From contig OZ253580.1 of assembly GCA_965263035.1 (NCBI GenBank), positions 5,696,001-5,760,000 on the forward strand: 64,000 bases of DNA. The letters run 5' to 3'. The notes under the pieces were generated by a model. It ran no database searches, was not told the DNA's origin, and worked only from the letters and a program-made list of their open reading frames with translations. Made by a program: the position numbers and the translations under genes. Of this stretch, positions 3,768 through 50,085 are shown piece by piece; the stretch's first letter is position 1; the number at the start of each line of letters is the position of its first letter. This DNA is from Acidobacteriota bacterium (GTDB lineage Bacteria > Acidobacteriota > UBA6911 > RPQK01 > JAJDTT01).

Positions 3768-4565
3768 ATGAAGATCCTCGTAATCGCGGGTCCGAACGGA
3801 GCCGGCAAGACGACGTTTGCACGGCGCTACCTGAAGCGCGAAGGGGATCGGCGCCGTTTCGTGAACGGTGACGACATCGCCGCAAAGCTGCGTCCAGACG
3901 ACCCCGCCGCCGTTGCGCAGAAGGCGGGGAGGTTGGCGTTGCGCGAGATGGAGGCCCACGTCGCGCGCGGCGAAGATTTCGCAACCGAGACCACGCTCAG
4001 TGGCAGAGCCTACGCCAAGAGGATCAGGCGGTGTCGGGCCGCCGGATATCGGGTCGCCATCATCTACCTTCGGGTGCTGAGCGCCGATCACTCCGTTGCG
4101 CGTGTCGCCCAACGCGTTCGCGAAGGAGGGCACCACATTCCGGAGCCCGTGATCCGCCGGCGCTTCGAGCGGAGCTGGAGGAACTTCCGCGACCTTTACC
4201 GGAAGGTTGTGGACGACTGGCGGGTGTACGACAATTCCGGCGAGGTTCCGGTTCTGCTGGAGGAGTCCGAGGAATGGAATGCAGTCCGCGAGCCGGGCAC
4301 GAAGTGGCGGCCATCAGGCCCCAGGCAACGAACCACAGATTCCGGGAGGCAACAAATGACAGAGCAGCCGTGGAGATTTCCGGAAGGGGAACCATCGAAC
4401 GAGAGCATTCTCGCCGCCCTTGTCCTCGCACGGAAGGACGCCATGCGCAGGGTAGCGGAATACGAAGCCAAGGAAGCGGCGAAGGCAGCGGCGGAAGCGG
4501 GGGGCGGCGACGGTGAAGCGCAGCTGACTCAACCCGTCGCAGAAGGCGAGCCCGTTGGCGGTTGA
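3768..4565 (+). CDS. Zeta-toxin-like P-loop ATPase with fused C-terminal extension
   Basis: IAGPNGAGKTT, FVNGDDIA, FATETTLSG, RVAQRVREGGHHIPE, YDNSG. Confidence 0.85.
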   Translation: MKILVIAGPNGAGKTTFARRYLKREGDRRRFVNGDDIAAKLRPDDPAAVAQKAGRLALREMEAHVARGEDFATETTLSGRAYAKRIRRCRAAGYRVAIIYLRVLSADHSVARVAQRVREGGHHIPEPVIRRRFERSWRNFRDLYRKVVDDWRVYDNSGEVPVLLEESEEWNAVREPGTKWRPSGPRQRTTDSGRQQMTEQPWRFPEGEPSNESILAALVLARKDAMRRVAEYEAKEAAKAAAEAGGGDGEAQLTQPVAEGEPVGG

Positions 4566-6058
4566 CCACTCCCGCCAAGTCGTCAACAAGGCGTGGAGCT
4601 TCGCGCACCTGCTTCGCGACGACGGCCTTTCCTACATGGCCTACACGGAGCAGATCACGTTCCTGCTGTTCCTGAAGATGGCCCATCAGCGGACCCAACC
4701 GCCTTGGAATCGCCCCCCATCGTGCCTGCCGGATTCGACTGGCCGAGCCTGCTCGCCCGCGACGGCGAGGAGTTGGATGCCCACTACCGGCGCATCCTGA
4801 CGGAGCTTCCCAGACAGGGAGGGATGCTGGGGGAGATCTTCAAGAAGGCCCGTCAGGAGATCCAGAATCCGGCCACGCTGAAGCGCCTGATCGTCGACCT
4901 GATCGACCCCGAGGACTGGATGTCGATGCGCGCGGACGTGAAGGGGGACATCTACGAGGGCCTGCTGGCCAAGTCGACCCAGGAGTCGCCGAAGGGCGCG
5001 GGCCAGTACTTCACGCCCCGCGAACTGATCAAGGCCATCGTGGACTGCGTGCGGCCGGGTCCCGACGACACGGTCTGCGACCCCGCCTGCGGGACCGGCG
5101 GATTCCTCCTGGCCGCCCATGACTACGTGTCCGAGAGCACGGCAGCAGCTTGGATCCCGACCGGAAGTGCCATCTACGGCAGGACTTCGTGCGGGGTTGG
5201 GAGATCGTGCCCGCGACCGCCCGACTCTGCATCATGAACCTCTACCTGCACGGGATCGGCCCGGACGAGTCCCCGATCCGGTCGGGAGTCGACAGCCTGG
5301 CCAACGATCCCGGCGAGCGCTTCTCGATGGTGCTCACCAACCCCCCGTTCGGCAAGAAGAGCAGCGTCCGAATCGTGAACGAGGAGGGCAAACTGGAGGC
5401 GGAGTCCCACGCCTACGAGCGGCAGGACTTCTGGACCGGCACCAAGAACAAGCAACTGAACTTCCTCCAGCACGTGAAGACGCTGCTCAGGATGCACGGC
5501 GCCTGCGCCATTGTCGTGCCGGACAACGTCCTGTTCGAGGGTGGCGCAGGCGAGACCGTGAGGCGCAACCTGCTCCAAGCATTCGACGTGCACACCCTCC
5601 TCCGCCTCCCGACCGGGATCTTCTACGCCCAGGGCGTGAAGGCGAACGTCCTGTTCTTCGACGCCAGGCCCGCGCGCGAGAAGCCCTGGACGGAGCGGCT
5701 CTGGGTCTACGACCTACGCACGAACAGGCACTTCACGCTCAAGATGAAGCCGCTCCGGCGAGCGGATCTTGACGACTTCGTGGCCTGCTACCGGCCGGGC
5801 GAGCGCCACTTGAGAGAGCCGACGTGGAGCCCGGACAACGAGGGCGGCCGCTGGAGGGCGTTCGAGTACGACGAACTGGCCAAGCGGGACAAGCTGAACC
5901 TGGATCTCCTGTGGATCAGGGACAGGGCTCTGGAGGACAGTGAGAATCTCCCGGAGCCGGAAGTGCTGGCTGCCGAGATCGTGGAAGACCTACACGCCGC
6001 CTTGGAGGCGTTCCAAGGAATCGCCCAGGAACTGGAGTCGTCGGGAAATGCTGCATAG
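4555..6058 (+). pseudogene. hsdM: Type I R-M methyltransferase subunit with two single-base frameshifts (or sequencing errors)
   Basis: Three consecutive frames give LRDDGLSY..EQITFLLFLKM / GQYFTPR, DPACGTGGFL / NPPFG, LRLPTGIFY; shifts near 4713-4718 (C6) and near 5131. Confidence 0.88.
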
Positions 6059-6122
6059 CTGAGCCTCGCCAGTCGCCGATTCGGGGCCGGTGGCGAAGAG
6101 GGGGACAAGGATGTCCCCGCTC

Positions 6123-6752
6123 GTGCGCCCGACATGGGCTGTATCTAAGGGATGAAAGATCCCAAGGGAGGTGATGGGACCAACCCTAGCCGAACCGCAA
6201 GGCGTAGCCGCGAGGTGAAGCTGAAGGAAGCGGAAGGCAAACCCACGACCGCAGGAACACGAACCGGCAGTGAGGCCGGGTGCGGGCGGTGAGCTGGCGA
6301 GCAACAGCGAAACCCGAACCCCATCCAGACGCATCAGGTAGAGCCGGGCGGCCCGGGGGGAAAGATGCAGCACCTTACTCGGGGAGATCTCAAGGGTGAG
6401 AGCCTTTGAGAAGTCAGCAGAGGTCATAGTAGCGAAGAAGCCGGATAATGCCGGTGGAGCGAAGGACCGAAGGAGTCGGACTGGCCCTATGGTGGACTCG
6501 TCAGCGGGATCGCAACTACCTCCGAAAACGGGGCGGGGGGAGGCCCCTCGGACCCGGCATGGAAGGCCCACGGGTGGAGCCCGGCAAGCCGGAAGGGCGG
6601 AGATCAAGTCTCAGCGGCGGCGGAAACCGGAAAGAAAGGCCCTGTACGAGGCTCGAAAGAGCCTCGGGTGACTCCAACCGCCGGATACTGAAAACGGTAC
6701 GTCCGGTGGTGTGGGAGGGTGCGGGGGCGCAATCCCCTGCACTCGACCCGAT
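6123..6752 (+). mobile_element. Group II intron, class IIC, lacking a reverse transcriptase ORF
   Basis: 5' GTGCG at 6123; conserved CTTACTCGGGGAGATCT and GAAGTCAGCAGAGGTCATAGTA segments; short domain V ACCGCCGGATAC..GTACGTCCGGTGGT (6677-6710, CGC triad); domain VI hairpin ending CGAT at 6752; stem-loop directly upstream. Confidence 0.9.
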
Positions 6753-6821
6753 CCAGGACGCGGCCATGTTTTTCTTGGAAGTGAGGTTCCGATTGAAGAT
6801 GGAAGTCCTGCCCGTCCCGAA

Positions 6822-7778
6822 TCAGCGGCGCCCGTCCAGGCTCCCGTTCCAGGGTGGAACCACCACCGTCACGTCGCCGTAGCACTTGGATTGGCACGCC
6901 AGCCGGATGACGGGATGGGTCTCGTCGTGGGAAGAGGAGTCGAGGTACCCGAAGTAATTCAGGCGCCGGCGCTCGTGTTCGCTCAGCTCGACGACGTTCT
7001 CCCGGCCGCTCAGGATGCCGATCCAGCAGTACCCGCACGAGGCCACCCGGCATTCGACGGGGATCGGTCCGGCGATGCACCGGTGGTCCCGGGTCTGATA
7101 GTCCCGTTCATCCCCGGCGGAGGCGGAGGACAGGTCCTGTCCTTCGATGCAGGAGAACGTCGCGTCCCGCTTGGATTCGTCGAAGCGGACCGTGAACTTT
7201 CGGTTGACGGTCCGGAGAAAGCCGAAGAGCCCTTGACTGGTCTTGCGAGATCGGTGTTTGAGGATCTTCTCGGGCATGGGCCGCTTGGAACGCGGCGTTC
7301 CGGACCCGGAACCGCTCCGGAAGGGTTGCGCTCCCACCTGCTGGAACGCCATTAATGCCACCGCCGAGATCCCCAGCAGGAGGGATTTCCGCACCTTGAG
7401 GTGGGCCGCTACGCCGCCCGCCAACCTGCGGATCTCGCTCCCGAGGCTCTCCAGGTCCAGGTGGGAAGCCGATTCGCTCCGCTGGAGCAGAGCCTCCTTC
7501 ACCCGGTTCCAATAGATCGATCCGTACAGGAATTCGACGGACTCGTCCAACTGTTGCTCCAGCCGGTAGCGGCCGTCCAGGAGATACTCCCGTGCCGTCA
7601 CCGCCTCGTCGATGGATTCATGAAGGAGCCGGCGGAGTTTCAGAGGCCAGAAGCCGAACCAGATTCGGGTCCCCTCCCGGTCCACGGGATGAAGCGAGGG
7701 CTCCAGGTCCGCCAGCACTCTGTCCCATGCCGGTTCGTCGTGCCGGTTCAAGAAATCTCGGAAAGCATCCATGTCCAT
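6822..7778 (-). CDS. 2Fe-2S ferredoxin-domain protein with uncharacterised N-terminal domain
   Basis: C-terminal ECRVASCGYC...RLACQ cluster motif. Confidence 0.8.
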   Translation of the reverse strand: MDMDAFRDFLNRHDEPAWDRVLADLEPSLHPVDREGTRIWFGFWPLKLRRLLHESIDEAVTAREYLLDGRYRLEQQLDESVEFLYGSIYWNRVKEALLQRSESASHLDLESLGSEIRRLAGGVAAHLKVRKSLLLGISAVALMAFQQVGAQPFRSGSGSGTPRSKRPMPEKILKHRSRKTSQGLFGFLRTVNRKFTVRFDESKRDATFSCIEGQDLSSASAGDERDYQTRDHRCIAGPIPVECRVASCGYCWIGILSGRENVVELSEHERRRLNYFGYLDSSSHDETHPVIRLACQSKCYGDVTVVVPPWNGSLDGRR

Positions 7779-8058
7779 GACTCGCTGTGGGCTTATTTCT
7801 TCAGAACAAACGTCAGGTGGGCCAACGCCCCGGAATCGTTTCCGTCAGGCCGTCAGTGGTGAGGTTCGTGTCCAACCACGTCTATATCCAACTTCCATGA
7901 TTCATTTTGCGGGCGCCATGATATCGCAGTTCCGGCGTTGAAGTAGTCCCTCGACGTAATGAGGCCCGCCGCAAGGGACCACGGAACCGATTCGTGACGA
8001 CTTGGCCTGCACGCGGGTTTTCGGTAGAGTTCCGACTTCTCCTGGAGAAATTTACCCG

Positions 8059-24685: not shown

Positions 24686-24710
24686 TGGGGGACAAGAATG
24701 TCCCCCCTCC
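24686..24710 (-). repeat. Single GGAG-foot REP
   Basis: TGGGGGACAAGAATGTCCCCCCTCC, identical to 27798-27822. Confidence 0.8.
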
Positions 24711-24773
24711 TGGTCGCTCATAGTAGACTGGGCGTCGCCAATACGGACAGATTCAAGATAAGGGAGTATCAGC

Positions 24774-27707: not shown

Positions 27708-27822
27708 GGAGCGGCGACTTTCTAGTCGCCGACAGGGGGGCAGGGGGGACGGAGTCCCCACTCCGCGTAGCGTCTTCCAAGTTGGCGAAACGAAGAATGG
27801 GGGACAAGAATGTCCCCCCTCC
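27708..27822. repeat. REP doublet (REPIN-like)
   Basis: GGAGCGGCGACTTTCTAGTCGCC ... GGGGGACAAGAATGTCCCCCCTCC; internal hairpin shared with 49954-50085. Confidence 0.8.
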
Positions 27823-27828
27823 TGACCC

Positions 27829-49953: not shown

Positions 49954-50085
49954 GGAGCGGCGACATCCTTGTCGCCGACCAGGGGGGTAGGGGGGACGGA
50001 GTCCCCACTTTACGCTTCTCTACGTTTCTCACCCGCGGATTCGCGTGGCAAAAGGGAAGAGGAGGCGATTAGAAATCGCCCCTCC
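49954..50085. repeat. REP doublet (REPIN-like)
   Basis: GGAGCGGCGACATCCTTGTCGCC ... GGCGATTAGAAATCGCCCCTCC between convergent genes. Confidence 0.8.

Follow-up and report, generated by a model that had tools for sequence, protein, structure and literature searches.

Predicted group IIC introns without a reading frame occupy repetitive extragenic palindromes in an Acidobacteriota genome

A 64,000-nt stretch of DNA (the window, G000:C1:5696001-5760000) was analysed from the genome of an Acidobacteriota bacterium (G000), which consists of one 6.198-Mb contig with 62% G+C. At positions 6123-6752, on the plus strand, the window carries a 630-nt element. It is very probably a non-autonomous group IIC intron, which has lost its open reading frame (ORF) by deletion and has retrohomed into a repetitive extragenic palindromic (REP) element. 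The family to which it belongs would select its sites by reading a stem-loop, the four bases of intron-binding site 1 (IBS1) and a following C.

The intron begins with GTGCG and ends with CCCGAT. Directly upstream of its insertion point lies a REP hairpin of type D (GGGGACAAGGATGTCCCC, 6101-6118, plus strand), with a perfect 7-bp stem (GGGGACA/TGTCCCC) and the loop AGGA. As single-stranded DNA, this hairpin folds with -13.4 kcal/mol (z -4.7). The 5' exon ends with GCTC (6119-6122, plus strand), which is IBS1 and also makes up bases one to four of the REP foot SCTCC (S = G or C). Past the intron, the 3' exon opens with CCAG (6753-6756, plus strand), and its first base, C6753, is the fifth foot base and the presumed IBS3. 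The ligated-exon junction predicted from the exon sequences reads ...CCCCGCTC/CCAGGACG, the slash marking the junction.

The hairpin 18-mer, searched with up to three mismatches, occurs four times in the window (0.23 expected; none of 100 shuffles reached four). Two unoccupied REPs of the same hairpin type, identical in sequence and with the foot CCTCC (GGGGACAAGAATGTCCCCCCTCCTG), are located at 24688-24712 and 27800-27824 on the plus strand. The fourth, looser copy is on the minus strand, at 49959-49976. A preliminary description of this DNA had proposed an intron inside a REP, whose removal would rebuild the repeat with the break within its conserved CTCC. Both proposals are borne out, by the intron's position between hairpin plus GCTC and CCAG, by the repeats at 24688 and 27800, and by the conservation of the foot. 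Its term "GGAG foot" needs a small correction: the foot on the intron strand is CTCC, and GGAG is the complement or the upstream partner.

A BLAST search of the intron against the G000 genome gave 30 matches, which resolved into 24 copies and one fragment. Nineteen copies are intact and ORF-less, and two contain an ORF (1848 nt; RNA parts 90-91% identical). Three copies were interrupted by later insertions, two by an IS3-family element and one by an insert of ~4.7 kb. The genome thus holds 22 ORF-less copies (19 intact and 3 interrupted) and two that encode a reverse transcriptase (RT)/maturase. Among the ORF-less copies there is a set of five without any difference, and in 10 the differences amount to 0-2 bases; two haplotypes are combined in some mosaic copies, and one copy has a mutated 5' end, GTACG. 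The intact ORF-less copies are 97-100% identical to one another, and this likeness, together with the five identical copies, suggests recent activity of the family. Segmental duplication was dismissed as the source of the copies, as past the hairpin their flanks show no relationship.

The interrupted copies are found at G000:C1:3067627-3070027 (plus strand), 3923178-3925592 (minus strand) and 5180457-5185638 (plus strand). The IS3-family element in two of them is ~1.78 kb long and has HTH_Tnp_1 and rve domains. The ~4.7-kb insert of the third copy encodes a large serine recombinase (Resolvase, Recombinase and Zn ribbon domains) and an integrase-core (rve) transposase. The fragment comprises 51 nt of the intron 5' end, with 94% identity (G000:C1:56917-56967, minus strand), and is preceded by a degenerate hairpin with CCTC at its end. 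A relative specific for CCTC may have inserted there earlier and left this relic.

All 24 copies in G000 have a 5' exon that consists of a GC-rich hairpin followed by GCTC, in a genome with 69,646 GCTC tetramers. The first base of the 3' exon is C in 23 copies and T in one. A T-run directly after the stem was found in none of the 24. Occupied hairpins belong to the REP family in 23 cases: 19 are of type A (GGCGRCAAGAAAGYCGCC; 17 with the exact pattern and 2 variants), two of type C (GGGGGTTNNAAACCCCC), one of type D, the window's type, and one is B-like. The remaining copy follows an unrelated hairpin, GGCCATC-AGGTC-GATGGCC. Aligning the 5' flanks of the genomic copies had been proposed in the preliminary description as a check, with U-tailed terminators or unrelated hairpins named as evidence to the contrary; the former account for none of the copies and the latter for one. 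Several of the intron 3' exons in G000 begin with another REP copy.

The sole non-REP copy (G000:C1:436206-436835, minus strand) lies antisense inside a gene of the zinc-dependent alcohol dehydrogenase family (ADH_N and ADH_zinc_N domains). The gene, of 365 codons, is interrupted near codon 318, with its parts at positions 549-1499 and 2133-2273 of locus L003. Because the intron is antisense, it could not be spliced from the dehydrogenase mRNA, and the gene is probably inactivated. The earlier view of REPs as harmless target sites therefore applies to 23 of the 24 copies, but not to this one. Likewise, the proposed REP-homing lineage stands in so far as REPs are the sites of 23 copies, but the REP sequence as such is not what is recognised. 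The recognition rule is stem-loop plus GCTC plus C, which is known IIC logic. This combination coincides with the SCTCC foot of the REP family in the genus, and REPs therefore supply most of the landing sites.

The exact-pattern copies of hairpin types A, B, C and D in G000 number 170, 55, 25 and 33, respectively. Their total of 283 is a lower bound for the size of the REP family, as it counts exact patterns; 888 perfect-stem hairpins followed by SCTC are present in the genome. Gene context was taken from a home-made, crude gene caller based on GC3. By these calls, which cover 84% of the genome, 233 of the 283 exact-pattern REPs are outside genes and 50 inside. Ninety pairs of neighbouring exact-pattern REPs are no more than 200 nt apart. 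The foot was scored in 153, 55, 23 and 32 unoccupied copies of the four hairpin types. The five bases past the hairpin are S-C-T-C-C, with C-T-C-C conserved at 75-96% in every type and a C as fifth base in 78-96% of the copies. As the foot is conserved in unoccupied copies, it belongs to the repeat; the insertion point is between foot bases four and five, inside the conserved CTCC. The congeners have these REP families as well, partly arranged in arrays that repeat every 28 nt. Such head-to-tail arrays of type A REPs were seen in G003, at G003:C1:1491539-1491756 and 113433-113538.

The orthologous locus was sought in eight congeners (G001-G008), using window positions 5000-7900. G002 and G003 have an intact REP with the exact exon junction ...GGGGACAAGGATGTCCCCGCTC/CCAGGACGCGG... 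and no intron; the empty junction reads GCTC/CCAGGACG. These empty-site alleles, which the preliminary description had suggested looking for, set the ends of the intron to the base. At the same locus, the REP of G006 and G007 is a variant that lacks CTC, and no REP was found there in G001, G004, G005 and G008. Given the intact empty REP in G002 and G003, the REP is older than the insertion, which took place in the G000 lineage, unless the other lineages have lost the intron with base precision. Absence from the nearest congeners makes the window insertion a young one. G002 showed no intron match at all, although type A REPs are present in it (19 + 8). G001 has a single ORF-less copy (G001:C1:4991714-4992361, 91% identity) at a CCTC site, with exon-binding site 1 (EBS1) GAGG. 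A DNA search gave no ORF-containing match in G001, and this mini-intron may be an orphan in a genome that has no RT for it.

In the window copy, EBS1 is GAGC at 6299-6302 (plus strand), in the terminal loop GCGAGCAA of domain I as placed by the RF02001 structure line, and it pairs with IBS1 GCUC. EBS1 was compared in an alignment of 11 copies from six genomes. It reads GAGC in all six copies whose 5' exon ends in GCTC (three from G000, two from G004, one from G031), and GAGG in all five copies whose 5' exon ends in CCTC (one each from G001 and G008, three from G003). GAGC is invariant in the 19 intact ORF-less copies of G000. The occupancy of the repeats follows the same pairing: in G000, introns are found at 20 of 153 exact-pattern REPs with a GCTC foot vs none of 53 with a CCTC foot (Fisher p 0.0025). 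In G003, all six examined sites have CCTC, though type A REPs in that genome comprise 62 with GCTC and 29 with CCTC. A passage of PMC10190682 describes the IIC ribonucleoprotein (RNP) as reading the DNA stem by its shape and forming Watson-Crick pairs with the single-stranded bases downstream. Site reading in the window family matches this published logic.

Three Rfam models match the ribozyme. Part of domain I was matched by RF02001 (group-II-D1D4-3) at 6204-6371 (plus strand, whole model 1-170, 85.5 bits, cut-off 32). A central ribozyme segment was matched by RF01998 (group-II-D1D4-1) at 6374-6467 (plus strand, 47.2 bits, cut-off 35). Domains V and VI were matched by RF00029 at 6676-6752 (plus strand, full model 1-77, 38.9 bits, E 5.2e-6), and this match ends exactly at the proposed intron 3' end, 6752. 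Group II hallmarks are present in the GTGCG at 6123, the bulged A of domain VI and the 3' terminal GAU. The catalytic triad of domain V in class C introns is CGC, not AGC. In the RF00029 alignment, domain V of the window intron has CGC in place of the model's AGC (model GAGCCG vs ACCGCCG). IIC introns use EBS1 and EBS3, without EBS2, according to a part of PMC8643678.

The window intron has no RT gene. Its domain IV holds the remnant of the reading frame for an intron-encoded protein (IEP), 60 codons at 6489-6671 (plus strand), as found by alignment to an ORF-containing copy. Of the original frame, the remnant retains the start and stop codons and about 55 codons of the N-terminal part; ~1.2 kb that coded for the RT/maturase has been deleted. 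Positions 1-528 of the ORF-less form align with 1-531 of the ORF-containing copy, and 540-630 with 1758-1848; the IEP start codon ATG is at intron position 367. The ORF-less form is therefore a clean internal deletion. The IEP of the full-length copies has 466 aa from an internal ATG, with RVT_1 (121-329) and GIIM (342-416) domains and no nuclease (HNH endonuclease) domain in a Pfam search at E <= 0.01. It matches TIGR04416 with 362.7 bits, its frames are open, and YADD is intact. The closest solved structures are the GsI-IIC RT (6ar1, E 3.7e-134) and a IIC maturase solved together with its DNA stem-loop target (7uim, E 2.7e-102), with LtrA a long way behind (E 4.6e-35). We assign the window element to the group II introns of class C, as judged from the IEP structure matches, the domains and the site architecture. 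The class given in the preliminary description agrees with the RVT_1 and GIIM domains without an endonuclease and with the GsI-IIC match.

The insertions are biased with respect to replication. The GC-skew minimum (2,873,574) and dnaA (2,872,067-2,872,549, 240 bits) coincide and place the origin at ~2.87 Mb. The target (sense) strand is the lagging-strand template in 20 of 24 copies, or in 18 of 22 when the two copies in the flat-skew terminus zone (5.5-6.2 Mb), one of them the window copy, are left aside. Among empty sites with hairpin and GCTC, 192 of 411 (47%) are on the lagging-strand template (Fisher p 5e-4 vs copies). A preference of class C introns for this template is reported in part of PMC8919778. 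The bias points to the replication fork as the place of insertion, with the hairpins extruded on single-stranded DNA.

In the mechanism that we favour, the RNP would read the DNA stem-loop by its shape, while IBS1 GCTC past the stem would pair with EBS1 GAGC (6299-6302) and the next base, C, with EBS3, for which the position is presumptive. The ORF-less copies, in which the entire ribozyme and the beginning of domain IV are preserved, would presumably be spliced and mobilised in trans by the RT/maturase of the two full-length copies. The most likely mode of entry would be reverse splicing into a REP hairpin extruded on the single-stranded lagging-strand template, where the nascent strand may prime cDNA synthesis.

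The sites could also be explained by ordinary terminator homing, the hairpins being U-less ("I-shaped") intrinsic terminators of a GC-rich genome and their resemblance to REPs incidental. The usual site of IIC introns is downstream of a terminator hairpin (PMC4424553; PMC8643678, sections of each), and the distant relatives of the window family, with IEP identities below ~50%, likewise sit after hairpins with T-runs. The window hairpin itself lies 42 nt past the stop codon of a same-strand methylase gene. However, the nearest upstream gene is on the strand of the intron for just 11 of the 24 copies and on the opposite strand for 13, by the crude gene calls, which does not fit a pure terminator reading. 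Intron orientation tracks replication (20 of 24) more than transcription, and the T-run directly after the stem is missing throughout. By sequence, the hairpins group into a small number of families that together have at least 283 copies, share a conserved 5-nt foot and often occur in doublets or arrays, whereas independently evolved terminators would not share sequence. We regard terminator homing as improbable, with the proviso that REPs could also act as terminators, which would make the two readings not fully exclusive.

It is even harder to reconcile the data with a spread of hairpin and intron as one unit, or with an intron carried as passenger by REP/RAYT transposition or inter-REP recombination. 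Hairpin and intron are always adjacent, RAYT-like genes exist in G000, and the mosaic haplotypes suggest some recombination among copies. Against this, an intron-free REP is present at the orthologous locus of G002 and G003, this one intron is found behind hairpins of four types as well as an unrelated one in a coding region, and G002 has type A REPs without an intron match. Nor would EBS1 be expected to covary with the foot unless sites are chosen by RNA-DNA pairing, and a one-unit spread is highly unlikely. The copies might instead be fossils of a family that once spread into REPs and is now immobile, perhaps non-splicing, and kept since intergenic insertions cost nothing. The IEP is encoded by two of 24 copies, three copies are broken by insertions, and one has the mutated 5' end GTACG. 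This explanation is very unlikely, however, considering the five identical copies and the 10 with 0-2 differences, the open IEP frames with intact YADD, the intact EBS1 in 19 of 19 copies, and the young insertion at the window locus.

Several observations nevertheless weigh against retrohoming into REPs by stem-loop and foot reading. The kin genomes are not independent, and the EBS1-IBS1 covariation may therefore reflect just one or two switching events. Hairpins are used unevenly, with 17 of 92 GCTC-footed type A copies occupied vs none of 38 of type B (p 0.003), for which we have no explanation. Recognition is not strictly REP-specific, given the G000 copy in a non-REP coding-region hairpin and a non-REP palindrome at one of six sites in G003. 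The RF00029 match is 1.1 bits below the gathering score of 40, and the gene context comes from the crude home-made caller. Splicing, mobilisation in trans and current activity of the family are inferred from sequence. The label REP is based on copy number, palindromy and extragenic location. Two RAYT-like genes scored 73.9 and 75.6 bits on NF047646, under the NCBIfam cut-off of 80, and REP doublets flank the truncated gene but not the other.

The truncated RAYT-like gene (75.6 bits) has the same doublet on each side, at L141 1057-1101 and 1795-1839 (~G000:C1 3477691-3478473), in direct, not inverted, orientation. Each doublet consists of a reversed type D hairpin, followed by type C with a GCTCC foot. 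These doublets are suggestive only of a link between the REP family and RAYTs, and the conserved REP foot may be the motif read by a RAYT transposase. No REP doublet was found at the flanks of the full-length RAYT-like gene. A different group II intron (RF02005 group-II-D1D4-6, 166.5 bits) starts right past the stop codon of that gene, at L142 1121-1344 (minus strand, ~G000:C1:2482544-2482767).

The gene upstream of the window REP (5150-6058, plus strand) has an N-6 DNA methylase domain (PF02384, E 2.5e-35). Its stop codon is 64 nt upstream of the intron. Further upstream, at 3768-4565 (plus strand), an ORF has Zeta_toxin/AAA_33 domains, as in kinases of the toxin-antitoxin type. Together with the methylase gene it may form a defence or addiction island. 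The convergent gene downstream (6822-7778, minus strand) has no Pfam family, and its stop codon is 69 nt past the intron.

Relatives of the intron were sought beyond the genus by an IEP scan of genome contigs. The closest, with 50-68% identity, are in metagenome-assembled genomes labelled Acidobacteriota, Bryobacterales, Verrucomicrobiota and others. Wherever their 5' end could be placed, these follow a GC-rich hairpin with a short tail (GCTC, CCTA, GCTA, GCCA) and no T-run. Relatives below ~50% identity, from Alicyclobacillus, Burkholderia and others, are those found after terminators. In four genomes of Bryobacterales (Acidobacteriota), introns with 59-65% identical IEPs follow recurrent hairpin families, near-identical among several copies. 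One of these genomes (G043) contains the hairpin GCACGGC-N3-4-GCCGTGC+GCC 51 times, vs zero for the reversed-pattern control, and several of these hairpins are occupied. G043 also has inverted hairpin pairs ~60 nt apart, resembling REPINs, e.g. at G043:C1 143950/144010, 541874/541934, 598878/598938 and 4025524/4025583.

Considering the recurrent hairpins in Bryobacterales, REP-like targeting may be a property of the whole IIC subclade. More tentatively, a multi-phylum IIC clade could consist of specialised parasites of REP/REPIN populations, with EBS1 tracking the foot and ORF-less "mini-introns" amplifying in trans, similar to miniature inverted-repeat transposable elements (MITEs). We hold this wider reading to be possible but not yet probable. 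If it is true, insertion splits the hairpin from its foot and could disable the REP, so that one selfish element would prey on another.

The mechanism of the window family is standard IIC stem-loop homing. What sets the family apart is the REP target, the switching EBS1 matched to the foot and the burst of ORF-less copies. According to sections of a review (PMC4424553), group II introns of bacteria follow three target strategies, using long homing sites, terminator motifs or attC sites. To these the window family would add the REPs of its host as a fourth source of structured targets. For a case built on genomes alone, the evidence is unusually complete, as it comprises empty sites defined to the base, an RNA-DNA pair that covaries and a bias in replication strand. 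With 22 ORF-less copies dependent on two autonomous ones, a bacterial IIC intron appears to behave like a MITE. The family links REP/RAYT elements and retroelements, which have so far been studied apart. It also matters for genome annotation, because RT-based intron searches miss ORF-less copies. A 630-nt ribozyme, a separable RT and an easily switched 4-5-nt target code would make a compact system for studies of IIC targeting.

REPs are known as targets of insertion sequence (IS) elements, among them ISPpu9, ISPpu10, ISPa11, IS1397 and, in SBW25, IS481 (PMC1525189; PMC11708052), and the window family resembles these in using REPs as insertion sites for a mobile element. A table row for P. putida KT2440 lists "Group II intron 2/9, 22.2%" as REP-associated (PMC1525189). 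In our literature searches, this row was the only earlier link between introns and REPs; key older class C papers and supplements were outside their scope, and an earlier remark is possible there. A preprint (10.64898/2026.09.22.753630) and PMC11708052 both mention introns and REPs, and draw no connection between them. Unlike in KT2440, 23 of 24 introns in G000 are in REPs, their position in the REP is fixed to the base, and the pairing that selects the foot was identified and covaries.

Class C introns that insert after intrinsic terminators include B.h.I1, GsI-IIC and O.i.I1. The window family resembles them in its small ribozyme and its RT/maturase without an endonuclease domain, for which the GsI-IIC RT is the nearest solved structure. 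It shares with them the insertion a few bases past a stem-loop and the short EBS1-IBS1 and EBS3-IBS3 pairings (PMC8643678, in part), and with class C introns the preference for the lagging-strand template (PMC8919778, in part). In contrast to terminator-homing introns, its stem-loops are dispersed repeats with a conserved foot, not gene-specific U-tailed terminators, and IBS1 is GCTC or CCTC, outside any T-run. It also differs from bacterial introns generally, as 22 of 24 copies are without an ORF, a form called rare in bacteria in a section of PMC4424553. Many ORF-less copies next to a few ORF-containing ones with an RT able to act in trans are also described for the IIB introns of Thermosynechococcus elongatus (PMC8643678; PMC4424553, both in part). 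Those belong to class IIB instead of IIC and use long EBS1/EBS2 homing sites, whereas the window family uses a stem-loop plus 4-5 nt.

IIC-attC introns such as S.ma.I2 (PMC4424553, in part) are likewise a sublineage on repeated, structured sites of another genetic system that fold as single strands. The 24 sites in G000 are REP hairpins and one coding hairpin between ordinary genes, not attC; no search aimed at an integron integrase was made. Unlike attC sites in cassette arrays, the targets of the window family are REP hairpins of 17-20 nt that are scattered over the chromosome.

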